Part shown: in pieces, positions 1-28,840 of the stretch | Position numbering within the stretch: position 1 is the first letter of the stretch | How the letters are laid out: each line of letters starts with the position of its first letter | Source of the DNA: Leucoraja erinacea | Lineage: Eukaryota | Length of the DNA stretch: 64,000 bases | Reading direction: 5' to 3' | Assembly (NCBI RefSeq): GCF_028641065.1 | Contig: NC_073395.1 | Coordinates: 34,038,001 to 34,102,000 of the forward strand | Position numbers and translations under genes: made by a program | Notes under the pieces: model-generated | The model's database searches: none | What the model was told of the DNA's origin: nothing | What the model saw: only the letters and a program-made list of their open reading frames with translations

Positions 1-144
1 TATTTGAAAACAGATGGCAAGAATGATCTATAAATAAATTGATCAACCCAGGTAGTTTAGGGCAACACCATAAAAATACATACCCATCTTTCAGAAATGA
101 TTACTAAAATGAGGTACACATTAGTTATGCATAGCTATTCAAAG
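1..144. repeat. Direct repeat, copy A of the sequence at 63857-64000 (putative segmental duplication unit)
   Basis: Ungapped alignment of 1-144 with 63857-64000 shows 6 mismatches in 144 bp. Both copies run to the window edges. Confidence 0.95.
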
Positions 145-399
145 TGTTCTTTGTGGGTTTCAGATTGACCTGGTAAACAATTAATTGCAATAACAAGTTA
201 AATTAAATATCAAGTTTTCTTTTAAAAGGTATAATAGTTTGAAAAAGTTAAATAGATTTACTGAAATGAAATCTAATACAGTAAGTAATCCCTCGTAGTC
301 ACGGGCCATGATGCCCAATATTGCTGATTGTCCTGTTATAAAGGAGTGAGATATTATCATTGTATGCAGTGAAAATTGCAGACAGGTTAATACACAAAC

Positions 400-510
400 G
401 GACACAAAGTGCTGGAGTAACTCAGTGGGTCAGGCAGCATCTCTGGAGAACATGAGTTGGACCCTTCACACCGAGTCAGTTTTCTGAGTTACTCCAGCAC
501 CCCGTGTCGT
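400..510. mobile_element. Degenerate short palindromic Penelope-derived repeat
   Basis: gtgctggagtaactcag...ctgagttactccagcac arms; same family as the copies at 2810 and 3790. Confidence 0.7.
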
Positions 511-939
511 TTCACCTTAAAACTTGGTGCTGGTCTGCACCAGTGAGCGTTTCTTCACTGGTTCATGCGGCTTATGTTTCAGCCCCTGGAGACAATTTGT
601 TGCAATTCTGTTGCAATAATTAGCAGTCCCACTTTCAAATAATGTATACTGTAGCTTAGTGTTAGGAGAAGCAATACTGCTGCATGCAAGAATTGGTTGG
701 ACAGCAGTTCTTCCTGCTATCCATTAAACTGCTTTGCAACATGCCTTGTGCTACAAACATTACAATAATTCCTCTCACCCTTAAAATAAATGGAAGCTAA
801 TGACTACGTCAGAACATTTATATCAACTAATATATTCTCACAATAATTGAATACATTGGGCGCTGCACGATGGCAGCCTCGCCAACGGTGTCTGCTTTTT
901 TTGTTCTTTTTAATGTGTTTTAAAAATGTGTTAATGTCT

Positions 940-1382
940 CCACTCCTTCTCCCCCCACCTCCTTTAAAAGATTTACCGTACACTGGGCCAGCCATCTTTA
1001 ACCTTCCTGAACATCGCGGCTATCACCTTGGCTTTGCACCGTCTGAATTTCAGACAGAGCTCCCCCGCTTTCCCTGGCCCTCGCCTTTTAGTGTGTGTGT
1101 GTGTGTGTGTGTGTGCGCGTGTGTGTGTCTCTCGCTCTTTCTGTGTCTCTCTCTGTCTCCGTCTGTGTGTCTCTCTCTGTCTGTGTCTCTCTCTCTGTCT
1201 GTGTCTCTCTCTCTCTGTCTCTCCCTCTGTCTCTCTGTGTGCCTCTCTGTGTCTCTCCGTCCCTCGCCTTTTAGGTAGGTGGTGGGGTGTCTGTACGTGC
1301 GCGTATCTGACGGTCCATCCATCTCGTGGTTTGTCAGGTCGCAGACAGTTTGCTGAAAAGTCGCGTAAGTGGGACAGGCCCT
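940..1382 (+). mobile_element. Non-autonomous Harbinger/PIF-like DNA element, right part
   Basis: Ends in AAGTGGGACAGGCCCT followed by TAA. Its internal sequence matches the opposite-orientation copy starting at 17898. Confidence 0.6.
1091..1262. repeat. (GT)n/(CT)n compound microsatellite
   Basis: Directly visible dinucleotide runs. Confidence 0.95.
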
Positions 1383-1942
1383 TAAAACTGCACTTGTCTC
1401 AACGTAATTTGAACATTGTAGATATACCCAGCATCCTGAGCTCTTGGGGAAAAACACCCCAGCCCATGCAATATTTCCTTACAACTTAATCCCTCCAGTT
1501 CTAGTAACCCTCCAGTGTGAAACTTTTCCCAACCCTTTCCAGCTTAATGACATCCTTTTAGCTCAGTGACTGGAATTGCACATACTTTTCAATGTGCTAA
1601 TTCAAGCATCTGACCGTGCTGTTGTGTGACTGTTTGAAAACCATTAAAATAGCCTCCATTAAGAATTAAGAGTAAATAGCCCCCATTAAGAGTCCCTATT
1701 CTTTTACGGATATTTACAGAAATTGAATAGCTACTTAGTCAACAATTGGATAGGAGCACATTCTGTTAACTTGAGAAAGCTTCCAAATCAAGCACTAAGT
1801 GGCTACAGAAAGAAAATGTTCATAAAAATATGTTTTTGGTACTGAACCACACTTCTAATGAAAAAAAGTCATTATCAACAGTCCTTATAAAGTTAAAAAG
1901 TCTTTATGTAACCCCAATAAAATGATTTAGTCGAGTACTTAC

Positions 1943-2048
1943 AAACCCGAACAGAAGATACAAATTAAGAGGATGCTGATGTCTGTAGATTGCCAGAGCA
2001 ATTATGAGACCCAGAGATCCTAAAGCCGTTACCAACACCAAGGCAGGA
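1943..2048 (-). pseudogene. TMBIM4: TMBIM4 (GAAP/LFG4) exon 3; intact 106-bp exon of a disrupted copy
   Basis: Reads (S)[35 protein letters not shown], like vertebrate TMBIM4 ([34 protein letters not shown]). AG acceptor and GTAAGT donor are present. Confidence 0.9.
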
Positions 2049-2138
2049 CTAGAATCGAGACAAGACAATAGATTAGCAAGTAATACAAAATATACTTTCA
2101 AATTAAATTTGATATTATTTTAGTGAATGATTAAAAAA

Positions 2139-2173
2139 CTGCCGCGTGAGAACATGCGAACTTTCTCTGATAG
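2139..2173 (-). pseudogene. TMBIM4: Probable 3' remnant of TMBIM4 exon 2
   Basis: Reads LSEKVRMFSRG+AG, colinear with human FESVRTFVHE-S, and ends in the phase 2 needed for exon 3. The GT donor is missing at that position. Confidence 0.5.
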
Positions 2174-2809
2174 TTGATTAGGATTAAGCGAGTTCAGTAT
2201 TCCGACTGGTCATAGGTCACTCGAGATAAATATTCTCGGCATATGAGATGCTGCATGTACACAGACCTGTGTTTCATCCGTAGTCAGGGTCTCTGGCGCT
2301 GCAAGTGCTGTTGAATTGCTATTGGAGTTAGCGACACGAGTTCTCCCTTCTCCACTGGTCCATCAGAAATCTCAGCAGTGACAATCTAATGAACCACGGT
2401 CCGGTCCCCTTCAGCCTAGGTGTCTGGGTTCCATTCTCACTCAGGCTGTCCTCCCGGGTCATACAGGGTTATTTTACAGGGGTGAACCACACACCCCTCT
2501 GCTGCATAACCACAGGAGGCAGATTTGTGAGTCTCACTACTGTCCCCGTCCCCTCCCGAGTGTCCCATCCCTATCAGGGGCGGTCGGAGATGTCTGGGGT
2601 GACCCTGGACTGACGGGACACCGGCCCAGAGCAGTGGCGGCCCCAGCGCGGAGAAGAAGCGCTAACTCCGGCTCAACTCTGCCCCAACTCCCGAGGAACC
2701 CGTTCCCCGATCGGCCGGGGACTGTCAGCTGCATCTCTCGCTTTATCCAGTGACTGTCAGTTAACCCCCTCGGTGCCGGCGAAAGCCGAGCACCAGTCAT
2801 CAACGGGGA

Positions 2810-2960
2810 TACACGCAAAATGCTGCAGTAACTCAGCGGGTCAGGCAACATCTCTGGAGAAGGGTCTCGACACGAAGCGTCACCTATTCCTTTTCTCCAA
2901 CTATGCTGCCTGTCCCGCTGAGTTACTGCAGCACGTTGTGTCTACCTCTGGTGTAAACCA
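2810..2960. mobile_element. Palindromic Penelope-derived repeat with a degenerate hammerhead core in the loop
   Basis: Arms tgctgcagtaactcagcggg(t)caggca and tgcctg(t)cccgctgagttactgcagca flank ctggagaagggtctcgacacgaagcgtc. Confidence 0.75.
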
Positions 2961-3532
2961 TCCTACACAGCAACGCCTGTCTGTGGGTAAAGGCGAGGCG
3001 GCGGGGAGAGAGAAACTCGCCACCCCGTTTCCGCAAGAACTCCCCGGCGCTGGGACAATTCCCCCTTCTCCCCCCCATCCCACACCCCGGACTGGAGAGG
3101 GGGACTGGGGGACATTGCCCGCCTCTGCAACAAAATGTGCAAACCCCGGCACTCCCCGCGGAAGGTGATACTAAACACATCTGCGAGCAAAACACAAACA
3201 CGCACGTCTATCCTCCCCGCCCCACATCCGGTCCAGTCTCCCCACTGTCTCCCACTCGCATCTGCCCCCTCTATCTCTCACTGTTGCACCCCGCTTTCCT
3301 GGCACCCCCGTTTGCTTCCCCCCCCCCCCCCCCCCCCCCCCCAAATGACCTTCGACAAATGCCATGATTCCTTGCATTTTCGGAATACTGAACTCGCTTA
3401 CTCAATTAACTTTATTTACTGCAGTGTGAATGGTAACATCAAATCTCACATTAAGTGAAAATAAAAAAGGCAAGGAGAGGTAAATCAGAAATTGTAAAAG
3501 GAGAACTGAGTGGTGCATATTAGCAATAACAG

Positions 3533-3567
3533 AACAGATTAGATGCTGTAAACCTTGCGCAGAAATC
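3533..3567 (-). pseudogene. TMBIM4: TMBIM4 exon 2, 5' part, with a premature stop
   Basis: ttttcttctgatag|GA TTT CTG CGC AAG GTT TAC AGC ATC TAA = (G)FLRKVYSI*, matching the conserved FLRKVYSIL. Confidence 0.85.
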
Positions 3568-3789
3568 CTATCAGAAGAAAAGAACGTATAAATTCCTTGT
3601 AACGTGTAAATTACTTTGTATAACAAAAAACATACAATCTGAGTGGTGCATACTAGCAATGACAGAACTATCGGGTGGTTTCACTTTCTGTTTATAATTG
3701 GCGAGTTAAACTTTTCCATATCATTCCCATTTTCTCCAGATGACAGATTAATTTATCACCACGTCGGCCAGAATGCTTAGAGAAAGATA

Positions 3790-3880
3790 GACACAAAAAG
3801 CTGGAGGAACTCTGCGGGTCAGACAGCATCTCTGGAGAAAAGGAATAGGTGACGTTTCGGGTCGAGACCCTTCTTCAGAC
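3790..3880 (-). ncRNA. Minimal hammerhead-ribozyme-like motif in a Penelope-derived short repeat
   Basis: Minus strand 3851-3878 reads CUGAAGA-A-GGGU(CUCG)ACCC-GAAA-CG-UC, with conserved core, stem II and palindromic ACGU helix III. Helix I is weak. Confidence 0.6.
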
Positions 3881-4045
3881 TTGAGAATCTGATATTTAGA
3901 GAAATGTCCCCGGGTTGACGGCTGGGGCCGGGATGAGCCCCGGCCCTTGTCCCCGGGCTCCAGCTCCACCGCCGCCTCGGCCCTTCCCTTTACAATGAAC
4001 CGAGACGACGCCATCGGGCCCCGGCGCCCCCGCCTCTGCTCTTAC

Positions 4046-4116
4046 CCAAGCGGATGTCCACGCTGGTGCCGTAGTTGAAGTCATATTCGATGGAGGAAGC
4101 AACGGTACGGTTCCAT
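4046..4116 (-). pseudogene. TMBIM4: TMBIM4 exon 1, frameshifted and internally deleted
   Basis: The ATG at 4116 is 19 nt before SSIEYDFNYGTSVDIRL(G), so it is out of frame and gives MEPYRCFLHRI*. The ASAxV segment of NYGSSVASATVHIR is missing. GTAAGA donor present. Confidence 0.88.
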
Positions 4117-4124
4117 GTCCGGCT

Positions 4125-4145
4125 CCTTCCTCCACTTCCGCGTAA
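4125..4145 (-). promoter_or_regulatory. ETS/GABP-like motif (CGGAAGTG) in the CpG-rich 5' region of TMBIM4
   Basis: ccacttccg at 4132-4140, just upstream of the ATG in GC-rich sequence. Confidence 0.4.
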
Positions 4146-4709
4146 CCCCCCTGACCAGCCTAAACCAGCAACCCCCGTCAATGTCCTCCACAGATGTTGT
4201 CTGTCCGTCCTCCACAGATGCTGCCTGATCCACATCTGAGTTGCGCCAGCACACTTTGTCTTTTACATGTAAACCAGAATCTGCAGTTCCTTGTGCCAAC
4301 AAGCAGGCAAGTCCTCTCTGCTAGTGTAGCAGAACAAAGCCGACCGCATAAGAAGATCTGGTTTAGTACAAGGGCTGTTCATAAAAGCAAGAAAATAGGT
4401 TAAAAGGACAAAGAAAGGGGATTTTTTAAAACTTCTGTTTTATTTTTTCCGTAGTTGTTGAATGCCAAGGTTGGACCCAGTCGGCTGAACCCAACTGAAG
4501 AATGTTCAATGGCCACATGCACCAAGATAATGAAAATCTTACTTGCTGCAGTTTTACAGGCACATTAAATCAAACGAAACAACAAATAAAGATACAACAA
4601 GATAATACATTTTCTAGATAAACCAGATCATGAGTGTGCAAGGTAAAGTGTAGCCTTACCTGTACAGCAATCTTAGAGAGTTGCTATCAGATTGGGGCAT
4701 AGAGGAGGG

Positions 4710-5330
4710 TTCATAAAACATACAACACAGAAACTGACCCTTTCAGCCCATCTTAATCCATATCAAACATGATGCCCATTTATGCAAATTGAATTTACCT
4801 GCATTAATGCCTTTCCTATGCCAAATGCCTTTAAAATATTGTGACTGTATCTGCCACTTCCTTTGGCAGCTCATTCCAGATAACCAACACTCTGCATGAA
4901 AATAACCCGCAAATTTCCTTAATATTTCTCTCCTCTCACCTTAACCCTATTGCCTCTTGTTTTAGACTGCCCTGCCTCGGGGGAAACTATCTATCTATGC
5001 TTATCATAACTTTATAAACCCAGAGAGTTTTTCACACAGAGAATTGTGAGTGTGGAATTCTCTGCCTCTGGATACTTGCAAGTGTCCTAAATCTGGTGCA
5101 CACAGAACCTTTTTATCAGGATGGAAATGTCACAGAGATTATAGCTTTAAGGTGAGAGGAGCAAAGTTTAAAGGAAATGTGCAGGGCAAGTTTTTTTTAC
5201 AGAGAGTGGTGAGTACCTGGAATATACTGCTAAATGTTGGTGGTGAAAGCAGATACATAATGATATGTACGGGGCTTTTAGATAGGTACAGATATTAAGG
5301 GATATGAATCACGTGCAGACAGAGTAGATT
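4710..5330. mobile_element. Degraded CR1 3' fragments in both orientations
   Basis: RVV..WN.LP-type CR1 C-terminal remnants and 3' UTR motifs. Confidence 0.6.
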
Positions 5331-5570
5331 TGCCGAACACCTCCGCTCAGTTCGCCTGATGTCCCGGTAGCCAAACACTTTCCCCATTCCCACAATGATT
5401 TTCTGTCCTGGGCCTCCTCCATTATCGGAGTGAGGCCCCGCGCAAATTGGAGGAGCCGCACCTCATATTTCGCTTGGTCAACTGACACCCCTCTAACACT
5501 TCATTATCTCTGTAACTCCGTCTTCCCTGACGCGCAGTCTGAAGAAGGATTTCGACCAAAAATATTACCC
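5330..5570 (+). mobile_element. Penelope-like element 3' fragment
   Basis: Matches the 3' part of the element at 7255-8222 (gccgaacacctccgctcag...ggcctcctccat) and ends in a degenerate ctgaagaagg core. Confidence 0.75.
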
Positions 5571-5983
5571 ATTCTTATGTACAGTGTGAACGCACACATA
5601 AAAAAATAGCAGTGCAATAATAACAATAATAATCTACAGTATGGAGTTCAGAGCTTATTTGATGTTCGCATCATTCCCAAGAAAGACTTGTTTTCAGGCT
5701 GCCGCGCTAGTCTGTACAACCAGTGAAATGCCAACAATTGTGATTTACAAAATAAAACGCTATTTCCTGTGTCCGTGATGCGAATGAGGCGGAACGGGAG
5801 GTGGAGCAACAGTATTAAGCTGTAAGATCTTTGATTAAGCATTGGAAGAGAGTGGAAGGGAGGAAGCTGAAGCTGCAGAGGAGTGAGTGGCTCTATGCTC
5901 TGGCTACGTCAGAGTCAGTTCAGGATCCTACGTTAGCTGGCACCCAACGATACTTGGGTTGAGTTCATTGGCAGCGGCGAGTC

Positions 5984-6182
5984 ATGGCTGCTCAAGCTCG
6001 CTCATGTATCACAGTTGAGGGTTACATCGAACCACGAAAAGACAAAGAGTCGGAGGAAGATTCGGACAGCGAGGAGAACCAGGAACCCGAGGAAGATTTG
6101 CAGTTCCTCGACCTCAACGACATGATAAATGTTTCCCTCGGTGCCAACTCTGTCAACGCCTCTTCTGTGGTCGGGCGGTTCG
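5984..6182 (+). CDS. HELB: DNA helicase B, exon 1
   Basis: ATG with an acidic N-terminus (EEDSDSEENQEPEEDLQFLD) like HELB, and a phase-1 GT donor that fits exon 2. Confidence 0.8.
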
Positions 6183-7057
6183 GTAAAATATTGATACTTA
6201 ACTTACATTTAGTTTACTGCTGAAGTGCATTTTTCAAGAGCAGGAGCTTTTTAATTTGCAATTGTTAGTATTTCCACTGATAATAGTAGTTGTTGGATCG
6301 GCCCGGCAATTGGAGGCTTTGCCCAACGGCTCCGCGTTTAGTCATGTTTGTGTGGAGTTTGGATGTTCTCAAGAGTCCAGGGTGAAGAGTGTCTAATTGT
6401 CCTGCAATGGAGCAATGAAATTCTTACTTGCAGCAGGACACTAAAACATTAAATATAGTACTCTGTAAAAACCATCATGAACAACAAGAGTTCAGTGTAT
6501 ATAGTGCCAACGCACTATTATATATTTATATATATATATAATAGTGCTTTGGCGGATGAGACAATAGTCGATTTTCCAAACGAGTTTTATTAACAAAACG
6601 ATGAAATCAACGAAGTGACTCAACACAGCCAACACACACATTTAGCACAACGGTGATCCAGAACGACTGAAGGGGCATCGCCCAGAAAGCGCGCGAAAAA
6701 CAAACCTTCCCCAGATCTGGTCACATGTCTGAGGCACCCGTTCGATTACCTTCAGGCACCAGCAGGTGCCGCTGCAGTGCAAAGATAAAAACTGCCCACT
6801 AGTCTGTGTAGTTCTGAGCAAAGATCTTATAGCAGAGCAAGATGCGCCACTCTGCGAAAAAAGCGTAGTATGACATGACGCCATTTTATTGAGCTGCAAT
6901 TTACAATAATATTAATAAAATTTACAATAATATTAACTAAATATATGAAGTGATTGATTATATATAACACACTTTTCCCTACAATACTGATTACACCAAA
7001 GATGATAGAGTGGATCAATCTTTGGAACGGATTACACCAAAGATACTAGAGGAGCAT

Positions 7058-7233
7058 TGCCCGCTGCCTCGGGAGTTCATGCCATCAGGACGCAAGCAAC
7101 CCAGGCGGAATATGAGGTGCTGTTCCTCCAATTTCCGGTGTTGCTCACTCTGGCAATGGAGGAGACCCAGGACAGAGAGGTCGGATTGGGAACGGGAGGG
7201 GGAGTTGAAGTGCTGAGCCACCGGGAGTTCAGG
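7058..7233 (-). mobile_element. Inverted partial copy (pLTR) of the adjacent Penelope-like element
   Basis: Reverse complement of ~7960-8110 (AQHFNSPS.SQSDLSVLGLLHCQSEQHRKLEEQHLIF). Confidence 0.9.
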
Positions 7234-7254
7234 TGACTGACTGACTGACTGACA

Positions 7255-8222
7255 GGTGACAAACCAACTGACTCACATGGCTATCTGGACTACACATCTT
7301 CCAACCCTGCCCCTTGTAAAGACTCCATCCCCTACTCCCAATTCCTCCGCCTACGCCACATCTGCTCTGAGGATGAGACGTTGCACACCAGGACATCTGA
7401 AATGTCCTCGTTCTTCAGGGAACGGGGATTCCCCTCCGCCACCATAGATGAGGCTCGCACCAGGGTCTCATCCATACCCCGCAACACTGCTCTCTCTCCC
7501 CATCCCCGCACTCGCAACAAGGGCAGAGTCCCCTTAGTCCTCACCTTTTACCCCACCAGCCGGCAAATACAACAAATAATCCTCCGCCATTTCCGCCACC
7601 TCCAACGTGACCCCACCACTCGCCACATCTTCCCATCTCCCCCTATGCCTGCCTTCCGCAAAGACCGCTCCCTCCGCAACTCCCTTGTCAATTCTTCCCT
7701 TCCCTCCCGTACCACCCCCTCCCCGGGCACTTTCCGTTGCAACCGCAAGAAATGCAACACCTGTCCCTTCACCTCCCCCCTCGACTCCATTCAAGGACCC
7801 AAGCAGTCGTTCCAGGTGCGACAAAGGTTCACCTGTATCTCCTCCAACCTCATCTACTGCATCCGCTGCTCTAGATGTCAGCTGATTTACATCGGTGAGA
7901 CTAAGCGGAGGTTGGGCGATCGTTTCGCCGAACACCTCCGCTCAGTCCGCAATAACCTACCTGAACTCCCGGTGGCTCAGCACTTCAACTCCCCCTCCCA
8001 TTCCCAATCCGACCTCTCTGTCCTGGGTCTCCTCCATTGCCAGAGTGAGCAACACCGGAAATTGGAGGAACAGCACCTCATATTCTGCCTGGGTTGCTTG
8101 CGTCCTGATGGCACGAACGTTGAATTCTCCCAGTTTTGCTAGCCCTTGCTCTCCTCGGGCTCCTCCTCCTCCCTTTTTCCTTCCTTCTCCCCCCCACCCC
8201 CCATCAGTCTGAAGAAGGGTTT
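7255..8222 (+). mobile_element. Penelope-like retroelement, 5'-truncated, with GIY-YIG endonuclease (ORF 7381-8142)
   Basis: Contains CxxxxCxxC, NLIYCIRC..C..IYIGETKRRL..RF.EH and VAQHFN. The 3' end carries ctgaagaaggg. Confidence 0.92.
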
Positions 8223-11200
8223 TAAAAAGACAAAAAAGATAGAAAAAGGAAGAAACAAAATCCCCCTAAACTAAAGATAAAAACAAAGGCAAAAAATAAA
8301 TAAATAAAAACAAATCAAAACAGAATCTGAACTGAGAATTTCAACAATTTTAGTCTGTTTGTCGTCAAGTCTGTTCCACTGTATAGAGGTAAAATAGTTT
8401 TTATAACAGTTAGAGAGGGAGCAATTTATGTTGTGTGAAAGTGTTGAATACATTTTCCCCAAGTCTTATCAAATTTAACCAAGGGTTCAATAATGTCACT
8501 TCTGAATTTTTTTTTCTAAATTTAAACATGATATAGTTTCAGAGTACCACTGGAGTGTTGACGGAGGGTTGGAGTCTTTCCATTTAAATAAAATAGATCT
8601 TCTGGCGATTAGTGTGGTAAAGGCAATCAACCGATGGGCGGAGCAGAACAAATGAATAAAATCTATCATTGGTAGCCCAAAAACTGCAGTAATAGGATGA
8701 GGTTGTAAATCTATACCTAAGACTACAGAAATAGTATCAAATATGTATTTCCAATATTTTTTCAAAAGTGGGCAGGACAAAAACATATGGGTCAGCGAGG
8801 CCACTTCAGAGTTACATCTGTCACAGGTAGAATTTATATGACCATAGAAATGAGCTAACTTATCTTTTGACATATGAACTATGTGAACCACCTTGAATTG
8901 TATCAGAGCGTGTCTTGCACACATTGAAGAGGTATTGACTAATTGTAGAATCCTATCCCATTTCTCTATAGATAAAGACATTTGGAGTTCTATTTCCCAG
9001 TCATTCTTAATTTTATCAATTATATCTATTTGTACTTTCAAAATCAACTCGTAAATAGTCATTATTAATCCTTTCTGATAAGGGTTCAAATGTAAAAATG
9101 TTTCCAAATTTTCAGTTTGATGTGGTAGCGGAAAAAATGGTAGCCTTAAAAAAATGTCTAATTTGTAAATATCTAAAAAAGTGTGAATTAGGTAAATTAT
9201 ATTTATTGGACAGTTCTTCGAAAGACATAAAACAACCCTCCAAAAACAAATCATGAAAAGCTACTAATCCCTTCCTCTTCCATAACAAAGAGACTTGATC
9301 AGTACTAGATGGTTGGAAGAGAAAATTGGATAAGATAGGACTCGATAAGATAAAATCATTTAGTCCAAAAAACTTACAAAATTGAAACCATATTCGAAAC
9401 GTATGTCTTATTATTGGGTTAGTCGTATATTTATTCAATCTCGTAATTGTAAAAGGCAACGAGGTCCCTAGAATAGAAGCCAATGATAGCCCTTGTAAGG
9501 AATCACGTTCAAGGTTTATCTATCCTGGGCATTGGGTATCTTCTGCCATATATATGAAGACATTTTGGAATCTATAATATCAAAGCAAGATTTGGCAATA
9601 AAAATTGGTATCATCTGAAATAAATACAGAAATGTATGTAAAATGAACATTTTAATAGCATTGATTCGGCAAATTAAAGATAAGGACATTGGTGACCATT
9701 TAGTAAACTGTTGCTTAATATGGTCAAATAAAGGCATAAAATTAACTTTAAATAAATCCTTGTGTTTCTTGGTGATCTTAATACCTAGATAAGTAAAACA
9801 TTCAGTTAGATAAGTAAAACAGTCAATCTAAGTGGAAACTGTCCATAATTCGAAACTAGATTATTTAATGGAAAAAGCTCACTCTTACTAAGATTTAGTT
9901 TATAACCAGAAAAACGACAAAATTGATTAAGTATTGCTACTATTGCCGGAATAGGTTTCTCAGGGTTAGAAATGAACAATAACAGATCATCTGTATAAAG
10001 AGATAGCTTATGTATCTTATTCCCGTGGACAATACTAAAAATATTAGGGGATTCCCTAATAGCGGTGGCCAAAGGTTCCAAAGCAATATCAAATAGTAAA
10101 GGACTTAAGGGACAGCCCTGTCTAGTACCTCAAAAGAGCCTGAAAAAAGGGTATCTCTGGTTATTAGTAAGTACAGAAGCCTGAGGTATATGATATATCA
10201 GCTTGATCCAAGAAATACATTTTGGACCAATCTTAAATTTTTCAAGTGTATTGAATAAGTATTCCCAAGCTACTCTATCAAACGCCTTCAAATGAAATGA
10301 CACATTCTGGGGTTTTATTTGACGCTGTATATACAATATTCATTAATCTCCTAACGTTAAAGTATAAGTAACGATTTTTAATAAAACTTGTCTGATCTTC
10401 AGAGATAAATTGCGGTAAAATATTTTCCAATCTCATAGCTAATATTTTGGAAATAATTTTGAAATCTACATTTAACAGTGACATAGATGTCACTTCAGTA
10501 GGGTCTTTATCTTTTTTAAGGATTAAAGAAATAGATGCTTCATAAAAAGATTGTGGTAATCTATTCCTTAAAAAGGCTTCTTTAAATACCTTGCAAAGCC
10601 AGGGAGACAATAAATTTGAATAATACTTTAAAAATTCTACTGTAAACCCATCTAAACCGGGAGCTTTACCAAAATTCATTGAAATAATTGCTTTCTGTAT
10701 TTCTTCTTCCGTGATGGGTTAATTTGATTTGAAAATTTTTGATTTGATTTGATTTGAAAAATTTATTGTCATTCAAACCTAGGTTTGAACGAAATAATCT
10801 AACAACAGATACTCATTATATGGTAAATTTGGTAAGTTCCGTTTCTTTAAAAACTCATGCATTATATTGGGATCAGTAGGAAATTCTGATTGGTATAGGG
10901 AGGTATAAAATTCCTGAAAGGATTTATTAATTTCATCATGGTCTACAGTTAGTGTACCATCCCGTTTACTCACTTTAGTAATCTGACGGTTAGCCGTCAC
11001 CACTTTCAACTGATTAGCGAGTAATTTACCAGATTTTTCGCCGTGTTTATAAAATTAACTTTTGGTTTTAAGTAGCTGGTTCTCAATCGGTGATTCTAAT
11101 AACAAATCATTATCTCAATTGAAGTTCAACTCTATTCTTAAAGAGCTCTAAACTAGGAGCTTTTGAATATTTTTTATCAATTACTCGTCAGCCAATGTAC

Positions 11201-12070
11201 GTATTTCTTTTTGAGTTTGTTTTTTTAATCCCGCGGAGTATGAAATAATTTGTCCATGAATATATGCCTTAAAAGCATCCCGGACTATACCATTGGATAT
11301 GTCTTCAGTAGAGTTTGTCAAGAAGCAAAAAGCAATCTGATCTTTAATATAATTAATAAAATGTAAGTCTTGATGCAAAGTAGCATCAAATCGCCATTGT
11401 TTAGCACTAAGCTTGGAATCAGGAAGTTTGATTGATAGTTTCAATGTTGCATGATCAGAAATAGCAATTGCATCATACTCACATGCAGTGACCGATGAAA
11501 CTAGCCGAGAATCTATTATAAAGTAGTCAATCCTATAAAAAATATGATATACATGAGAGGAAAAAGAAAATTCTTTGTCATTTGGGTGTAAGAATCTCCA
11601 AACTTCTAACATTTCAGAGTCAAGTAAAAAAGAATTAATAAAACTAGCTGATTTATTTGGAAGCACATGATCGGATGTAGATCTGTCAATCAAGGGTTTC
11701 AGACAGTTGAAATCTCCACCCATTATTAAAAAGTGTTCATTTAAATTAGGAAAGGATGCAATTAACTGTTTAAAAAACCTCAGGGTGATCAATATTTGGT
11801 GCGTAAACATTCACCATAGCAACCTTTTGCTTATAAAGAATCACCAAAAATCTGCCATATGGATCAGAAATTGGTTCATAATGAACAAACAGAATTGAGG
11901 AATAAAAATAGAGACTCCTTTCAACTTAGCCTGTGAATTTGAATGAAACTGCTGTCCTCTCCAAAACTTGAAAAATCGTTGATTGTCATCTTACCTTACA
12001 TGAGTTTCCTGAACAAAGATAATCTGAGCATTTAGTCTGCGAAGAACTTTAAACATTTTTTTCCTCTGGG
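8223..12070 (-). mobile_element. L1/Tx1-clade LINE, ORF2 decayed
   Basis: APE endonuclease (IIFVQETH, GGDFN, RIDYF, SDH), RT (KAPGLDGF, KAFD, LYTDD), C-terminal CxxC..H..C, and T-rich 3' UTR. Many stops and frameshifts. Confidence 0.9.
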
Positions 12071-13400
12071 ATTTTTTTGTGTCTTCCCTAATGAAGACAG
12101 ATCCGAAGTACCTGTTCAACTCTTCTGCCATTTCCTTGTTCCCCATAATAATTTCACCCGTGTCTGCCTTCAAGGGACCCACATTTGACTTTGCTACTCT
12201 TTTTCCCTTAACATATCTAAAGAAGCTTTTACTGTCCTTCTTTATATTCCTGGCTAGCTTCCCTTCGTACGTCATCTTTTCAGCCCGTATTGCCCGTTTT
12301 TGTTTCCTTCTGTTGTCCTTTGAAAGTTTCCCAATCCTCCGGCTTCCGGGTACTCTTGGCTGTGTTATACATCTTTTGAATTAGTTTTATTCTATCCGTA
12401 ACTTCTCTTGTCAGCCACTGTTGCCTCCTACTCCCCTTAGAATCTTTCTTCCTTTTTGGAATGAAATGATCCTGTGTCTTCCGGATTATGCCCAGAAATT
12501 CCTGCCATTGCTGTTCCACCGTCATTCCTGCTAGTATCCCTTTCCAGTCTACCTTGGCCAGCTCCTCTCTCATGCCTTCAAAATCCCCTTTGTTCAGCTG
12601 CCTACCTGCCACTTCCGATTTAACCTTCTTCTCAAATTGCAGATTAAAACTAATCATATTATGATCACTACCTCCAAGCGGTTCCTTTACCTCTTATCAA
12701 ATTTGGTTAATTGAACAACACTAAATCCAGAATTGCCTTTGGTCGGCTCCATTACAAGCTGCTCTAAGAATTCATCTCGGAGGCATTCTACAAACTCTCT
12801 TTCTTGGGGGTCCTGAACCAACCTGATTTTCCCAGTCTACCTGCATATTGAAATCCTCCATCACCATAGTGGCATTACCTTTGTTACATGCCAGTTTTAA
12901 CTCCTGCTGCAACTTACACCCTACACCCGGGCTACTATTTGGGCGTCTGTTGATAACACCAATTAGTGTCTTCTTGCCTTTGCAATTCCTCAACTCAACC
13001 ACAGTGACTTTACCTCGTCAGTCCATTCCTCACCAGAAGAGCTAACCCCACCCCCTCCTCTGCCTACCTCCCTGTCCTTTCTATAGGATGTATAGCACTG
13101 AATATTAAGTTCCCTGACCTGATTCTCCTGCAGCCACGTCTCGGAAATCCCCTCAACGTCATATCTACCAACCTCTAACTGAGCCTGAAGCTCATCTACT
13201 TTACTTCTTATACTTCGCGCATTCAAATACAGTACAGTTAATTCCTTACGCATCTCACCATTCACATTGATCCCTACTACACGCGGCCATACTCTCCTAT
13301 CCCCTTGTGAGCTTTATTTCCTGTTATTTCTGGGGTCAATAACTATCCCTTTACTCCCTTTCCCTTTAACTCCGTCCTTGACTATCCCATTTGACACGAT
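12071..13400 (-). mobile_element. CR1 LINE fragment (endonuclease region), 3' half missing
   Basis: LYLNARSIRSK, ISETWL, DFN, SDH; same subfamily as 26878-29985 and 46815-49540. Confidence 0.9.
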
Positions 13401-13511
13401 TGGAGGAGGGATTTGTAGGTCAGAGGCGGAAGTAGGGGGGTGAGACAGAAGATAGAGTGCGGTGATTGGAGGAGGGAGACGTCCTATGGAGCAAAGATCA
13501 TAGAACGGAGC

Positions 13512-13715
13512 TTGAATCGGCCGGTTCGTGGGGCCTTTCATCGCCTGGCGCGGCTTAAAATCGGCTGTGGGATCTTCCACCGCCCCGTGGTCACATTGCT
13601 GCATCACGGCGATCGAGGCTTCCATTGTTGAAGACTCCGCCGGGCGATGGAAAATCCCGCGGCCGGTTTTAAGCCGTGCCAGGCGATGAAAAGCCCTGCG
13701 AACGGGCCGATTGAA
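13512..13715. repeat. GC-rich inverted repeat with ~75-bp arms
   Basis: 13512-13585 is an imperfect reverse complement of 13641-13715. Confidence 0.8.
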
Positions 13716-13824
13716 GCCCCACGATTCGGGGCGGACAAAGTTGCTGTTGCTGGAGTTCAGAGATGGTCACCAACCAGGTCAGTTGCCGATGTGATTGTCC
13801 ACAGGGCCCACGACCGAAGCCGTG

Positions 13825-14950
13825 TTTTAATTTTTATTGGAAGCAATTGTACAAGAATAAAACATTCGGCATTAAAATTATACAATTATTGTACAGCTTC
13901 AATTTTAACATTTTAACCTGAAAATGAGAGAAAAGAACAAGAGAGGGAAAAAGTGAAAAGATAAGACCCCTAGACTACCAAAGTAGTGGCCAAAGAGTGA
14001 CTAAAGATATAAGAGAGAAAAAAAAGAGAAAAAACACAAAAAGGGAAAAAGAAAAAAAAGAAAAAAGTGTAGATATACCTGCCCCTCGTCCCACCCCGTC
14101 CACCTCACCCAACCCAGAATCAGATTTAAATCCAAATTTGTGTTGCACCATACTATCCATGTAAGAATTCAGTAAAGGGTGTCCATGTATTGAAAAAATG
14201 ATTTGGTTTTTCTGCCAAGATAAGCCTAATATTTTCCAAATGTAATGTCTCGGACATGTTTGTAATCCACATCTTCACAGTAGGGACTAATGTGTGTTTC
14301 CAAAATTTAAGTATTCGTTTTTTCGCCGTTATCAGGCCATAGTTGAGGAAACGTCTTTGAAATAATGTTAGCTCAGAACAGGCTTCTGACGTACCTAGAG
14401 TAATCAATTCCGTGTCGGCATCCAATTTTATTTTAAGTATTTTAGAAAAAACTTCAAAAATTCCTGTTAATTTCTCCTTTCAAAGAGGAATTCACCTCCT
14501 CGATTCGAGCTCGTAGAGTATCAATTTTTCCACAAATTTCTGTTTTCCCAGCATTGAGTTGATCATCAAGTTTTGTTTCTAAGTTTCCAAGCTTTTCAGC
14601 CAACAGTTCTCTAATGTCTTTTACCATAGCCATTCTTAGAGCTTGGTCTTGTTCTTGGGCTTCCATAGTAGAAACAAGTATTTCTTCCTCAGATTCTTCC
14701 TCTTGTGGAGTCTGCCTTCGAGTTCTGTGTTTTCTCAGAGGTGGAGTAGGAAGGTCCCTTTTGTGAGCCCGTCTTTTCATTTAAAATGTCGGTATCACGT
14801 CGATTTCTGATGATGTCACTTGCACGTCGTCGAGCATCTGCCAGTAAGTGTTTTTTCTTCAGTCCGTTTTTATTTTTCAGGTGTTTTAATACGTTTTTTC
14901 GGAGCGGAGCTAAATGGTGCACCTCTTTACACTCCATAGCGTCACCGGAT
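13825..14950 (-). mobile_element. Internally deleted L1-like element (5' UTR, ORF1 start, ORF2 end, 3' UTR)
   Basis: The basic/acidic coiled-coil ORF 14454-14780 abuts an ORF2 tail (LITAKKRILKFWK...W.PF), followed by AATAAA near 13830. Confidence 0.65.
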
Positions 14951-15399
14951 GTTTTGCTAGCGATCTCCGCCCTGGCACCACAGGATCTGAACTAGTAAAG
15001 ATTTGATCGACAGATATGTGAAAGAAACATTCCTTTTTGTTTTAGTCTGGGAGTCATTGGGTAGTCCCACTCTCTCAGCCTGAATCATTAATGGTGACTT
15101 TCTTGAATGAAGAGGATAACAGCAACATCTTCACTGCCTTGTTGTGCTTTCTGTGCTCTATAATACTGTATCACCACCATAGCCAATGACTCACTTTAAT
15201 CTCCTCTGCTGATCAGATTGGATTTCTATTGCTGAGGTTTTCTAGAGCGGTATCTGAATGCAACAGCTGTTCATACGCAAGTGTGAGAATCTTTGTAATG
15301 CACATGTTCCGCCTTGCCTGATAACCAATACTGCTACCTTATAAACCAGTAACTGCTTCCTTATAAAGTCTGGTTAACTCACATAAGTTTGGCAGGATC

Positions 15400-16690
15400 A
15401 GATTGATCCTGGATTAGTGGAAGGCAGTGGAGGCCAATTCACTGGATGTTTTCAAGATGGAGTTAGATTTAGGTCTTGGGCCTAAATGAAACAAGGGATA
15501 TGGGGGGAAAAAGCAGGAAATGGGGTACTGATTTTAGATGATCGAAGGGCCGAATGGCATACTCCCGTACCTATTTTTCTATGTTTCATACTGACGTGGA
15601 TAGAGAATTGGTTGGCAGACAGGAAACATAGAGTAGGGATTAACGGGTCCCTTTCAGAATGGCAGGCAGTGACTAGTGGGGTACCGCAAAGCTCGGTGCT
15701 GGGACCGCAGCTATTTACAATATACATCAATGATTTGGATGAAGGGATGCAAAGTAAATTTGCAGATGACACAACGCTGGGTGGCAGTGTGAACTGTGAG
15801 GAGGATGCTATAAGAATGCAGGGTGACTTGGACAGGTTGGGGGAGTGGGCAGATGCATGGCAGATGAAGTTTAATGCGGATATAATGTGAGGTTATCCAC
15901 TTTGGTAGCAAAAACAGGAAGGTAGATTATTATCTAAATGCAGTCAATTTGGGAAAAGGGGAAGTACAACGGGATCTGGGGGTCCTTGTTTATCAGTCTA
16001 TGGAAGTAAGCATGCAGGTACAGCAGGCAGTGAAGAAAGCGAATGGCATGTTGGCCTTTATAACAAGAGGAAATGAATATAGGAGCAATGAGGTCCTTCT
16101 GCAGTTGTACAGAGCCCTAGTGAGACCACACCTGGAGTATTGTGTGCAATTTTGGTCCCCTAATTTGAGTGAGGACATTCTTGCTATTGAGGGAGTGCAG
16201 CGAAAGTTTACAAGGTTAATTCCCGGGATGGCGGGATTGTCATATGCTGAGCGAATGGAGCAGCTGGGTTTGTACACTCTGGAGTTTAGAAGGATGAGAG
16301 GGAATCTTATTGAAACACATAAGATTGTTAAGGGTTTGGACATGCTAGAGGCAGGAAACATGTTCCCGACGTTGGGGGAGTCCAGAACCAGGGGCCACAA
16401 TTTAAGAATAAGGAGTAAGCCATTTAGAACGGAGATGAGGAAACACTTTTTCTCACAGAGAGTGGTGAGTCTGTGGAAATCTCTGCCTCAGAGGGCAGTG
16501 GAGGCAGGTTCTCTGGATGCTTTCAAGAGAGAGCTAGATAGGGCTCTTAAAAATAGCAGAGTCAGGGGATATGGGGGGAAGGCAGGAACGGGGTACTGAT
16601 TGGGGATGATCAGCCATGATCACATTGAATGGCAGTGCTGGCTTGAAGGGCCGAATGGCCTACTCCGCAACCTATTGTCTAATGTCTATT
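15400..16690 (+). mobile_element. Two tandem CR1 3' fragments
   Basis: SGVPQ.SVLGP, KFADDT, LVRPHLEYCVQFWSP, CR1 3' UTR hairpin (gggccgaatggcc) and short tandem tail. Confidence 0.93.
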
Positions 16691-16935
16691 TGTCTATGTA
16701 TCTTGGAAAGAAGCTAATGCTTTACAGAGACAAAACTATTGACAACAAAGCTTTATTTGGACCAAAGTTAAATATGAACATCATAATATGTGATGAGATG
16801 AATTAATGTAGAGTGAACATTTTTTTAAAATGCTTTAATTTCCTTTGAGAAAATAGACATGTACAAGAAACGGTTGTTGAAAGAGGTTAAATAGAAACAT
16901 TTATTCATACAACCCATTTATCATTCTTCTTTTAG

Positions 16936-17298
16936 TTAAAATCAAAGACTTTGGATCTGGTGAAACCTACGAGGTGTTTGGACGGTTTCATTTGACTTCT
17001 CCTTGGTGGAAAGTGACTGCAAAAATCCATTGTCATCAGAAAAAATGGAAGTTACACGGGTATCCTTCTTATGCTCTCGTGCACCCGGGCCAAAATGGAA
17101 CGAGCATCATCAGCCTTTTCTTAACAAAATGCCGCGTTCACTCAGATTACATAACAACACTTTTTTATTATTTCCCTCGCTTCGACAATCTTCAATTTTC
17201 AAAATTATTCAGCATTTTACAACAAACTGCAGACGAGGGGGAGGATGAAAACAAAAAAGATTTTGCAACCTCCATTATTGCCTCCATATCTAGTTCAG
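16936..17298 (+). CDS. HELB: HELB exon 2
   Basis: ETYEVFGRFHLTSPWWKV...GYPSY...IISLFL resembles HELB (KVFGRFPITGAWWRV). AG/GTAAGT, phase 1-1. Confidence 0.92.
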
Positions 17299-17897
17299 GT
17301 AAGTATGGTTCCCTTTAGTGTACCTTTTTGCCAGTTTTAGCAACATTTTCGATATTCTTATTGTCATTAAATTGTATGAAACTGAAGAATAATAAAACGA
17401 GTATTTATATAAAGTTGCAGCTTATAATAGAATGGCACAGTGGTAGCTTAGTCTGTGAAATTCTCTGCCGAATGGCCTACTCCTGCACCTATTGTCTATT
17501 GTCTATAATACTATTCATACACCTCAGTAGGTTTTTTTTTAAAGGTTCAATGGATGTTTGTAAAATGGAACACATTTCAAATTTACTAAACGCTCAAATT
17601 AATACCATTTAATATAGGTTTTCACATTCATAAAGTTTTTTTTAATAATAAGTTACAACAAATACCATTTCCTGATGATAAATTGGCCAACCCTGTTAAA
17701 GAGATGATCAATTACCACATGGGTATTCCTGTGTGTATAACTTTGGCTAAATAATTAGGTGCACAAGGTGAAGTCTTATTAAATGACCTGGAGGATGTTC
17801 AAAAATGCTGTGGCTACTGTGAATGAAGGAACAAACCTGATGGACTAAATAGCCTATTCCTATTACTAGTATTCCTAGTAATTACTAGGTATTCTGA

Positions 17898-18550
17898 AGG
17901 GCCTGTCCCACTTGGGCGATTTTTCAGCAGACTGCCGGCGACAAGTTCTGCTGAAATACCAGGAACTGGNNNNNNNNNNNNNNNNNNNNNNNNNNNNNNN
18001 NNNNNNNNNNNNNNNNNNNNNNNNNNNNNNNNNNNNNNNNNNNNNNNNNNNNNNNNNNNNNNNNNNNNNNNNNNNNNNNNNNNNNNNNNNNNNNNNNNNG
18101 CAAAGCCAAGGTGATAGAGACACACACCGCGATGAACAGGAAGGTTAAGACGGCTAGCACAGTGCACGGTAAGTCCTTTAAAAGATGGGGGGATGGGGGG
18201 GGGGCGGGGGGGGGTGGGTGGGGGAGACGGGGAGAAGTAGTGGAGACAATTTTAAGAAGCCAGACAACTTTTAACACGCCAGAGATACACAGCTGTGAAG
18301 TTTGGCGGGCATTTAACATTACCGGTCGGTTCTCCTTGGTTCTGAAAACTCGTGCTTTTTTCCCCCCAATGAGCCAATGAAAATGCCCGGTCAGCAAATG
18401 CGATTAACTAAAAGAACCTATGATTAGCTTGACTACCCATAACTACATGGCGACCCCACTATAACTGCACCTACGACTACAACTGCATCTATGGCTACAT
18501 CGATTTTCTCCATGGCGACCAATTTTTGGTCGCAGAAAATTTTCCAACAT
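17898..18550 (-). mobile_element. Harbinger-like non-autonomous element spanning an assembly gap
   Basis: AGGGCCTGTCCCACTT terminus; sequence on both sides of the N run matches 940-1382 in reverse. Confidence 0.6.
17970..18099. other. Assembly gap (130 N)
   Basis: Run of N. Confidence 1.
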
Positions 18551-18663
18551 GTTTTAGTAATGTCACAGGACTGAACTTAATGGGTTGTTATGTTAATGTT
18601 AATTTAACTTAAATATGTGTGTAAAATAACATTTGAAATGTAAGATAATTACTGAGAATTTAG

Positions 18664-18830
18664 TTGAAGGTCAGAATGTGCAGAAGGCTGTGAAGTTCCA
18701 AAGTTTGATGAAGTATCTGCCACAACTTCTGCCACGGCACTTTTTGCGTATTTTGAAGATGGACGACAATAAACTCTGGAGCCTGGATCAGATGATTTGT
18801 ACGGAAATGTGGAAGCTTGGATTCAGTTCT
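18664..18830 (+). CDS. HELB: HELB exon 3
   Basis: MKYLPQLLPRHF...WKLGFS is conserved in HELB. Phase 1-0, GTAAGT donor; the acceptor pyrimidine tract is weak. Confidence 0.9.
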
Positions 18831-18959
18831 GTAAGTTCACTCTCCTCACCCACCTCAGGCATAGTTGTAAATATGGACACCTTCAAAATAACCTATTCAT
18901 TCTTGATTCTGTGTCTTGTTTCTCATCAGGAGCTTAGTTATTGGTTTTCTAGGGTAAAT

Positions 18960-19262
18960 GTTGAATTGTGTAAGAAGGAACTGCAGATGCTGGTTTCAAC
19001 TGAAGTTAACTCCCTCTTAAATATAGCCAATGAACTGGCCTCAACTACCTTCTGTGGCAGAGAATTCCAGAGATTTACCACTCTCTGTGTGAAAAATATT
19101 TTTTTCAACTCGGTCCTAAAAGATTTCCCCCTTATCCTTAAACTGTGACCTCTTGTCCTGGCCTTCTCCAACATCGGGAACACTCTTCCTGCATCTAGCC
19201 TGTCCAACCCCTTAAGAATTTTGTAAGTTTCTATAAGATCCCCCCTCAATCTTCTAAACTCT
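18960..19262 (-). mobile_element. CR1 3' fragment
   Basis: LEFRRLRGDLIETYKI...RVVNLWNSLP. Confidence 0.9.
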
Positions 19263-19664
19263 AGTGACAAGACAATGGAGCAGCAAACTCTCATTAACAA
19301 CATTATTTTTTCATGACGATTTAATTTTTACTTTTAATATCCAATCAGTAGCCAGGTATCTCAGTGGTGATATGATAACTGATTCTACTAATTATTTGCA
19401 AATGGAATTTGTGTAAAATGATGCCATTGCTCAAAGGGCAGTAAAATAGGTAGAACGATAAGTCTATGAGAGTGTGGCAAGAATTGTAGATAAAAATACA
19501 AGAATTAGAGACTGCCCTGAAAATTATCAAGGAAGTTTGTTTAGCCATGTACTGAAAACTGTTGCATCTTATTTTGCTTAAATGGAACACTAAATGGCAC
19601 AAATGGTCTAATTGCAAAAGATTGTTTCATGGTTTAGCTAATAAAATAAATTAATTGTTCCTAG

Positions 19665-20477
19665 ATTCTCACGAAGGAAGTTCGACTTGTTGGTTGTGAA
19701 GCAACCTTGTTGGCTTTTGAAGAAGCTAGTCTTCTGACGACAATTCCAGAGTTACAAAGACACTCTCTTGTTATATATGATAAACTGAAACAAACCTGCT
19801 GGGATAAGGGACACACCTATGTGAATGTTGATGATCTGACTGGATTACGGCCATCTGAGGTCAACATTGAAAGTGAATGGGAATCACTGAATTTTTTGAA
19901 GGAATCAGAGATTATTGTGATTGAAAAGAAGCGGGTGTATCTTCAGCGTTTCTACAACTATGAGAAAGAAATTGCTACCTGTATAAAGGAACTTGTGGAT
20001 AAACCCCCAATGCAAATGCCTGTGTCTGTGAAGGAAGTTCTGAGAGATGCTTTTGTTCAAACCCAGAGCGACTACTTATGGAAGGATAATGAGGTGGATG
20101 ATACAGAACACAGTAAAACCATTAATTTGGATGAAGAGCAGGTCAAAGCTGCCACCATGATGTGTAAAAATCCTGTTACAATTATAAGTGGTAAAGGTGG
20201 TTGCGGAAAGACCACAATTGTCAGTCTCGCCTTCAAGGCAGCAGTTGAAAAAATGAAACGTGCTGAGGATGAAGAACTTTTGCAAGCGTGTGAAGATCTT
20301 GAGCAGGATCAATCTGCTCCTGAAAGCTGGGTTATACCAAAAACTCCGACTACACGTACTGATGGTGTTGAACCAAATGACGACAGCAAAGCAGTTGTGT
20401 TGTTCACTGCACCGACTGGAAAGGCAGCATCTCTTTTAAAGAAAAAAACTGGATTTAATGCTTATACGTTACACCAG
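19665..20477 (+). CDS. HELB: HELB exon 4 (Walker A, motif Ia)
   Basis: ISGKGGCGKTT, FTAPTGKAA, AYTLHQ; 813 bp, phase 0-0. Confidence 0.97.
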
Positions 20478-21004
20478 GTAATTGTTGTTGAGGATATTAT
20501 GGCAGGTAGTTCCACATTTTTATGTGCTCAGCAAGATGTAAATAGTTTACCTTTAAGGGGAGCACATCGTCACCAAGCTGAAGGTTGAAATGCTTTATGC
20601 AAAGGTTGAAATATTGGGCTTTATATGTTTTAGAAATACCTGCGTATTTTAATGTGTATTTTAGATTTGGTCACTGGAGAGTCATTTACAGGAGCAACAA
20701 TTTATGATGTGGAGCGCTCTTTAAAAGCTGTGAAAAGTTGTGTAAGGCAACTTATGATGGTTGCTTAAATGACTGTTGGGTGCCAAGGAATTTTCCTGTA
20801 AAACAGAGTAAAAGTCTTGGCTGTAATTGGTCAAGCTAGCATTAGTGATGTTAACATTTAATTTTTGTCATTTAATATTTGACAAAGGCCATTTAAGTAA
20901 GAAACGTGGCCGGCAAATTCCGGTGAGTTACAAATGGTGGAATGTTTAAACCTCTGTTTGATGGTTGAAAAAATGAAAATGGTGAAGGATGAGAAAGACG
21001 ATGA

Positions 21005-25757: not shown

Positions 25758-25797
25758 CAGGCCTTTTTTTGGCTAAGAAACCTAATCCATATGCATG

Positions 25798-25937
25798 GGG
25801 TGGGAGATTGCAACCTTCACATGGTCCGCCCTGTTTCGACTAATGCAAACAACCTGGTGTGCACAATCAAATAAGATCAAATAGAACAAGTTGGCCTATA
25901 ACTTTAGGCTATGCACGCCATATGCAAGAAGAAGAAC
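25798..25937 (+). mobile_element. Short retroposon 3' end with (GAA)n tail
   Basis: A second copy lies in reverse orientation at 54895-54980; family not identified. Confidence 0.6.
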
Positions 25938-27082
25938 CATATGCATGTCGTGGAGAATGCCTGGAAGGAGGGAGAGGCACACCTGACTGATGATGGCTGG
26001 AGCCAGTTCATTGATGTATGTCTCTTTGTAGCAGACAGTATTGCATTCCTAGCACATTGCCAGATCTACAAGTGTTGCCAGACACATGGTTTCTACCAAG
26101 GTATGAGTAAAGTCAGACTTATCTGCCTGGCAAACATTCCTTCCAAAAACATGTAACTAATTTTTACAGGAGAAAACTCATTATTCTAATATTGTTGGCC
26201 TCATTCAAAAGGCTATATTTTGTATCATGCTTCCTAGACAAATGAATGCAGACATGGAAGAAGCATGCAAAATATTTGAAAATAGTTATGTTATCTTAAA
26301 TATTGTTAGTAATATTATTATAAAACCTCTTATACATTGAATGAGGAAGCCCGGTATGTTAACTTGGATATGTACAGCAGATGTAGGAGAAATTATCAGT
26401 GTAAATGACAGGAAATTAGTTAAAAATATAAATAGCATTTGGATCCTGTTTTAATATAATTAATTCAATCCGTGGAAAATCTCATACACATGTTACCTGC
26501 CCAGAAATCTGTACAAATGAATCTTTACTCTTTGTATAGCTTCTGTACTTCACCAGCAAATTCAGCAATAAGGCTTTGCATTTAAAGCAGTAAATATGCC
26601 TTGCTTGGTATTTCTATACCTATTCACATTTTGACCCAACTTTTTTTCCTTTTCTGATTTCTCCTGTTCTCCAATCTTGGTTAAGTCAACTTCCCAAAAG
26701 GCTTGATTATGTGTTGAAACAATTTTTCTCTTTTAGCTCCCTTACTTTCCCAGTAATATTACGTGCCATGTCCACTTGCTTCCCTTCAAGATTTTTTTTT
26801 TCTAGTTCCTGAAGTCTTCCCAATTATTTATCTGCATAATTTTGTACCAACAAGAATTTAACCTTACTTCTGTGTCACATAGAAACATAGAAAATAGGTG
26901 CAGGAGGAGGCCATTTTGCACTTCGAGCCAGCACCGCCATTCATAATGATTATGGCTGATCATCCCCTATCAATAACCAGTGCCTGCCTTCTCCCCATAT
27001 CCCTTGACTCCACTAGCCCCTAGAGCTCTATCTAACTCTCTTAAATCCATCCAGTGATTTGGCCTACACTGCCCTCTGTGGC

Positions 27083-28610: not shown

Positions 28611-28840
28611 CCCTGTCCCACTTAGGAAACCTGAATGGAAACCTCTGGAGACTTTGTGCCCCACCCAAGGTTTCTGTGCGGTTCCCTGAGGTTCCCAGAG
28701 GTTTTTGCCAGTCTCCCTACCTGCTTCCACTACCTGCAACCTCCGGCAACCACGTGCAACCTCAGGGAACCGCACGGAAATCTTGGGTGGGGCGCAAAGT
28801 CTCCAGAGGTTTCCGTTCAGGTTTCCTAAGTGGGACAGGG
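28611..28840. mobile_element. Palindromic (fold-back) MITE with CTGTCCCACTT termini
   Basis: ~90-bp near-perfect inverted arms. Confidence 0.85.

Follow-up and report, generated by a model that had tools for sequence, protein, structure and literature searches.

The Sdic gene of Drosophila is a functional chimeric new gene, and GRIP1tau of testis is a short GRIP1 isoform, made from the intact gene, that holds the C-terminal PDZ domains only; in GRIP1, PDZ4-5 bind receptors. A tandem duplication has one novel junction, and break points of this kind can form chimeric gene structures, as stated in the excerpt available of a report on Drosophila chimeras (PMC2839345). Functional chimeric new genes have also been surveyed in rice (PMC3673630, excerpt). 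A human 12q14 microduplication covers GRIP1, HELB and TMBIM4, and the excerpt of that report discusses the clinical gain with respect to HMGA2 (PMC6942376).

The same three neighbours are involved in a locus of the little skate, Leucoraja erinacea. The window, the whole stretch of 64,000 nucleotides that was analysed, was compared along with 160 kb of flank on its left side and 140 kb on its right. Coordinates are given in window numbering, negative values lie to the left of the window, and the position on the contig (C19) is 34038000 plus the coordinate. The window contains the seam of an old head-to-tail tandem duplication in which HELB was copied whole, and we consider it highly probable that the resulting hybrid of TMBIM4 exons 1-3 and the last GRIP1 exons is a silent, neutrally decaying pseudogene. 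Like the chimeras described in the excerpt of PMC2839345, the skate seam has one junction, intact parents, a middle gene duplicated whole and a 5' part joined to a 3' part, but those chimeras are population polymorphisms of Drosophila, whereas the skate seam appears old, extending to two genera by the HELB phylogeny, and is decayed on both sides. As in functional chimeric genes (Sdic and, in the excerpt, those of PMC3673630), a promoter and first exons stand ahead of the last exons of another gene; unlike them, the skate hybrid has no intact fused frame and no sign of purifying selection, and no transcript of it was found in the RNA runs described below. The human 12q14 microduplication, as far as the excerpt of PMC6942376 goes, is a clinical copy-number gain and not an evolutionary seam inside TMBIM4 and GRIP1.

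Self-comparison of the skate sequence gave 42 colinear blocks with 31,157 aligned bases and a mean identity of 90.7%, which pair -54373..939 with 1591..70505. The two copies are adjacent, colinear and in the same orientation, with a single novel junction, as expected of a tandem segmental duplication, and in the whole genome TMBIM4 exon 3 and GRIP1 exon C have exactly two matches each. A complete native TMBIM4 lies to the left of the seam, and a complete native GRIP1, extending rightward from 62010 to at least 175521, lies to the right. The duplication that the earlier note had suspected is therefore borne out, both by the colinear blocks and by the two genome matches for each exon tested.

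Could the second copy be an assembly artefact, such as an uncollapsed haplotype? In each of the two HELB copies a run of T is longer by one base, which puts the reading frame out (at about 52183 and about -42340), and NCBI flags both models as low quality, so that small indel errors are possible; these insertions may be assembly slips rather than real lesions. However, the copies have diverged by about 9% and carry many private insertions, contigs from run X10 show the copy letter as well as the native one at window 1949 and fit stretches specific to the copy with few mismatches, and one of three Amblyraja HELB proteins groups with the window copy. The shared paralogue refutes an artefact, to which we assign next to no probability. 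Taken together, these results demonstrate that a tandem duplication centred on HELB is real at the DNA level. The identity is not uniform along it: blocks at the GRIP1 3' end are mostly 96-98% identical between the units (-5400..280 against 59700..64140), while most of the duplication is at 85-95%. Conserved non-coding sequence or gene conversion could account for this high identity.

Table 1. Positions of the duplication seam and of the native and copied gene parts, in window numbering.
Feature	Position	Strand	Description
Duplication breakpoint	1590/1591 boundary (1585..1596)		few ambiguous bases fit either side; no long shared repeat
TMBIM4 intron 3 copy, first 350 nt	1591..1942	-	native -54373..-54034; 5% substitutions
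TMBIM4 exon 3 copy	1943..2048	-	106 nt; phase-0 end; GTAAGT donor
TMBIM4 exon 2 copy remnant	3534..3567	-	acceptor kept
TMBIM4 exon 1 copy, coding part	4046..4116	-	71 nt against 85 in native; donor GTAAGA kept
Native TMBIM4 coding exons, complete gene	-50417..-63136		exon 3 at -53928..-54033; exon 4 from -56735
GRIP1 intron copy	958..1590	-	native 79068-79447, upstream of VPSG exon; repeat element and microsatellite inside
GRIP1 intron copy	420..939	-	native 69974-70505
GRIP1 intron copy directly upstream of exon A	1..427	-	native up to 64193
GRIP1 copy exon A	-130..-241	-	112 nt; phase 2 to 0; Gly>Asp; first acceptor past exon 3
GRIP1 copy exon B (ATIMSG exon)	-1633..-1867	-	2-bp deletion; stop 8 codons past Met
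GRIP1 copy exon C	-2400..-2546	-	Leu>Pro in PDZ7
GRIP1 copy exon D	from -2668	-	nonsense codon after PDZ7; 3-nt deletion; 3' UTR copy beyond
Native GRIP1, last four exons	62010..63729	-	63618-63729, 62900-63136, 62371-62517, 62010-62249
HELB (DNA helicase B), window copy	5984..59515	+	13 exons matched
HELB, second copy, left of window	-47804..-5522	+	

At the seam, 1590|1591, TMBIM4 intron 3 meets a GRIP1 intron (Table 1); both the join and its two donor regions were observed directly, and the join falls in the first of the two intervals (145-1942) that the earlier note had proposed to search. GRIP1 was broken upstream of the VPSG exon. Native GRIP1 70506-79067 is absent from the copy, and the 151-nt VPSG exon (74669-74819) was lost with it; native 64194-69973 is missing as well. 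Window 1336-1590 has a single full-length match in the genome, at 91% identity. That this stretch is a mere common repeat was ruled out, as the other 38 scored matches cover at most its first 72 bases. The few ambiguous bases at the seam suggest that the join was made by end joining and not by recombination between repeats. We infer that the original unit had its ends in TMBIM4 intron 3 and at GRIP1 native 79447 and was closed by end joining, using no more than a few bases of microhomology; later deletions would have removed the VPSG exon and the donor of exon 2.

On the TMBIM4 side, exon 3 had been read correctly from the letters, with its phase-0 end and GTAAGT donor, and the failure to find exon 4 in 1-1942 was also right, since across 364 kb no TMBIM4 exons 4-7 were found outside the native gene. 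The exon 3 copy differs from the native exon at one base, a synonymous change at window 1949. Over the 106 bases of the exon this is a single difference, whereas its introns differ by 5-7%. Under a model in which the copy alone was free to change, the low divergence has a P of 0.13-0.25, and at the full rate 0.006-0.03; we rejected the likeness as a signal of selection because it is not significant at half rate. The other copied TMBIM4 exons are damaged. Exon 1 carries a 1-nt insertion, a 15-nt deletion and a stop at codon 12, and in exon 2 about 87 native bases, including the donor, have been swapped for about 24 nt matching intron 1. The filler at window 3508-3535 is 93% identical to 28 nt of intron 1 (native -51514..-51487) and looks like a templated insertion. 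The CpG-rich promoter postulated for the hybrid did not hold up: most of the CpG-rich stretch in the copy belongs to intron 1, and the stretch has decayed (GC 0.51 with 29 CpG, against 0.73 with 49 CpG in native), and likeness to the native promoter ends about 80 nt upstream of the ATG.

On the GRIP1 side, a copy of the 3' part of the gene does lie to the left of the window, where the earlier note had advised looking for it, and it shares the minus strand with exon 3, as that note had assumed for both genes. The ATIMSG exon is not the first GRIP1 exon met, as had been supposed; the phase-2 exon A precedes it, and the native counterpart of exon A is also visible within the window at 63618-63729. 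Nor does the ATIMSG exon begin about 2.7 kb from the exon 3 donor; the distance is 3.6 kb. The Met of MSGST had been put forward as the start of a PDZ7-only protein. Copy exon B, owing to its 2-bp deletion, translates as ATTMSGSIESE-stop, and MSGST can be read in the native exon alone. Compared with three outgroup proteins, exons A-D have 8 amino-acid changes in the copy, one of them nonsense, and 2 in native; 5 further changes are silent and not assigned to a lineage. The Leu>Pro change of the copy in PDZ7 hits a residue kept in the three outgroups. Changes thus number 8 at 573 nonsynonymous sites. Set against the 5 changes at 159 synonymous sites in the two lineages together, and with these divided equally between copy and native, the ratio comes to near 0.9, which on such small numbers would suggest that the GRIP1 copy changes at about the neutral rate.

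Two minor features of GRIP1 were seen along the way. In native exon C, window 62424 encodes Ser in PDZ7, whereas Pro occupies this position in the dead copy and in the three outgroup batoids; in RNA, Ser was found in 11 of 11 reads of X14, and the other letter in one of two reads of X18. A GC-rich repeat element of about 900 bp is inserted between exons A and B of the GRIP1 copy (L003 8800-9710; window about -1200..-290), and the native intron lacks it.

We then considered which reading frames the hybrid could offer. With intact exons, splicing of exon 3 to the ATIMSG exon is in frame and gives a fusion of 307 aa, but requires skipping to the ATIMSG exon. Splicing of exon 3 to the VPSG exon or to exon A is out of frame and gives 121 aa or 112 aa, respectively, so that exon 3 and the nearest GRIP1 exon would have been out of frame from the outset. 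In the present copy, the splice sites of TMBIM4 exons 1 and 3 (T1 and T3) and of exons A, B, C and D are all preserved, but lesions were observed in copy exons T1, T2, B and D, and the first ATG of the hybrid yields 11 aa. The hybrid therefore holds no intact fused frame, and no internal frame open to ready translation, of the kind expected of a functional chimeric gene. It has instead the features of a duplicated (unprocessed) pseudogene, namely retained introns, an intact parent elsewhere and disabling lesions of the frame. Any stray transcript would run into the stop at codon 12, and degradation or a lack of translation would be its likely fate.

A chimeric mRNA giving a PDZ7-only GRIP1 protein has one candidate frame, of 115 codons, which is the longest in four splice models and runs through exons B-C-D from a later Met of exon B, not from that of MSGST. 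It is open in all four models, and the nonsense codon of copy exon D lies past the PDZ domain. The putative product would resemble GRIP1tau-type isoforms in having PDZ7 without PDZ4-5, but, unlike GRIP1tau, the skate exons are a mutated duplicate with a frameshift, a Leu>Pro change and a nonsense codon. Seven to ten upstream ATGs precede the frame in the four splice models, PDZ7 has lost a conserved residue, the GRIP1 copy appears to change at about the neutral rate, and copy-type coverage of exon B is lacking in four RNA runs (see below). We judge such a protein very improbable.

Expression was analysed in seven raw RNA runs from one organism (X13, X14, X15, X18, X19, X21 and X22; 10,242 million letters, 3-32% of each run) that carry no tissue labels; the small-share RNA runs X1-X9 and X24 stood outside the comparison. 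For X14, X18 and X21, letters were counted over 10 kb at 95% likeness, at 25 of 40 listed sites (10 almost without RNA cover and 5 in repeats were dropped; 495 more sites were unlisted). Since the 95% filter favours copy-type reads, the native shares are conservative. The tables of joints and loose ends for these three runs were filled by SINE reads (1,312 joints and 2,823 loose ends went unlisted), and the evidence on joints comes from X13, X15, X19 and X22, compared at 99% likeness from exon B to exon 3 with a threshold of three reads at two starts.

At each of the 25 sites, the alternative letter in the reads was that of the native copy, which fits an origin of the runs from Leucoraja erinacea or a very close species. 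In X14, X18 and X21, the native letter was found in 112/112 reads at exon 1 (window 4085), in 94/94 at exon 2 (window 3560) and in 186/187 at exon 3 (window 1949), the copy letter occurring there in a single read. The copy share of TMBIM4 reads is thus below about 3% (95% upper bounds 2.5-3.1%). In the same three runs GRIP1 reads were native in 19/19 and 14/14 cases in exon B, in 16/16 at the Leu/Pro site and in 21/21 at one site of exon D.

The chimeric junction that the earlier note had proposed to look for did not appear: no joint of exon 3 to exon A or B reached three reads in X13, X15, X19 or X22, in which the only two joints listed both lie within a SINE, and the half of exon B that is specific to the copy reached a mean depth of no more than 0.06 in each of these runs. 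Among the rows listed for X15, the one run in which reads at the exon 3 donor were seen (any such rows of the other three runs would fall among 113 unlisted ones), 40 of 40 reads leaving that donor continued into native TMBIM4 exon 4 with full agreement, and 106 reads entered exon 3 from native exon 2. A spliced transcript of both parents, as a functional chimeric gene would have, was accordingly not found at the three-read threshold in these four runs, at the shares sampled, and the letters counted for TMBIM4 in the other three were almost all native. As each half is disrupted and fused RNA did not turn up in this sample, the hybrid is likely an ordinary silent pseudogene remnant.

Some reads did not follow the native pattern. 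X19 has about 180 bases of read depth at window 1714-1852, in intron 3, where the longest run shared with native is below 50 nt, probably reflecting one or two copy-derived reads. Read depth on GRIP1 was low, and at its 3' end mixed sites were seen in X14 (native in 7/16 reads at L023 1235/1237 and 6/12 at 1994), X18 (4/7 at 2270, 4/5 at 2021, 3/4 at 1994 and 1/2 at 2507) and X21 (2/4 at 2139). Three of the mixed sites have neighbours no more than 27 nt away at which every read is native, and resemble allelic variants of the native gene. For L023 1235/1237 there is no such nearby control, and in X18 one or two reads may be of the copy type.

There may thus be trace transcription of the hybrid, and nonsense-mediated decay could mask an unstable hybrid RNA. 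We also weighed a copied TMBIM4/HELB divergent promoter that fires weakly or in one tissue, giving a spliced non-coding TMBIM4(1,3)-GRIP1(A-D) RNA that uses the copied GRIP1 polyadenylation site. The intact splice sites, the one copy-type exon 3 read with the trace of intron reads in X19 and the few non-native letters at the GRIP1 3' end, and the good conservation of the first HELB exon and its flank in the window copy are all compatible with such an RNA. However, the low ceiling on the copy's share of TMBIM4 reads, the lack of any listed joint in four runs, the loss of promoter likeness beyond about 80 nt, and the lack of any transcript-assembly member in the window HELB cluster, against 16 unnamed members of 18 in the left-type cluster, make it unlikely. 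It has very little probability, in our view, that in another tissue (gonad or brain, for example) the copied promoter makes a chimeric RNA from which a PDZ7-only variant of 115 residues arises as a skate-specific competitor of full-length GRIP1. A chimera that proved to be expressed and translated would represent a new gene specific to this lineage of cartilaginous fish and born by promoter capture.

The silent pseudogene thus remains our preferred reading. The TMBIM4::GRIP1 unit predicted in the earlier note stands as far as the duplication, the order of 5' TMBIM4 and 3' GRIP1 parts and the in-frame fit of intact exon 3 to the ATIMSG exon are concerned. Its chimeric transcription and its PDZ7-only protein are not supported, given the out-of-frame exon in between, the frameshift past the Met, the other lesions and RNA that is almost only from the native copy. 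The locus is a clean case of a duplication seam with a dead hybrid gene, in which the breakpoint is placed at base level and later deletions can be traced; otherwise the hybrid matters little. It also calls for caution, because reads from skate GRIP1 3' sequence and TMBIM4 exon 3 can each align at two loci.

Of more use is a by-product, the expansion of HELB in Leucoraja and Amblyraja, which is a better lead than the hybrid. The two Leucoraja HELB copies are 89% identical in amino acids, with a dN/dS of 0.64 over nine exons, and the window copy is without about 60 residues in the second-last exon. NCBI holds two HELB-like proteins of Leucoraja, three of Amblyraja and, in Rhinoraja, two isoforms in one cluster; each of the other cartilaginous fish listed has one HELB cluster, against the two and three diverged models of Leucoraja and Amblyraja. 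In a FastTree tree, window HELB and one Amblyraja HELB cluster together with 95/95 support; between the left Leucoraja copy and the third Amblyraja protein, identity is 96.7%. The grouping of the window copy with an Amblyraja copy suggests that the duplication is older than the split of Leucoraja and Amblyraja, a dating based on HELB proteins and not on an Amblyraja seam. The hybrid may have been kept as a passenger of the retained second HELB gene. Neither a skate HELB duplication nor the TMBIM4/GRIP1 seam was reported in the literature searched, which lay mostly outside subscription journals. TMBIM4 and HELB stand head to head in both units, 1.9 kb apart in the window unit (4116-5984) and 2.6 kb apart in the left one (-50417..-47804); in human, IRAK3 lies between the two genes.
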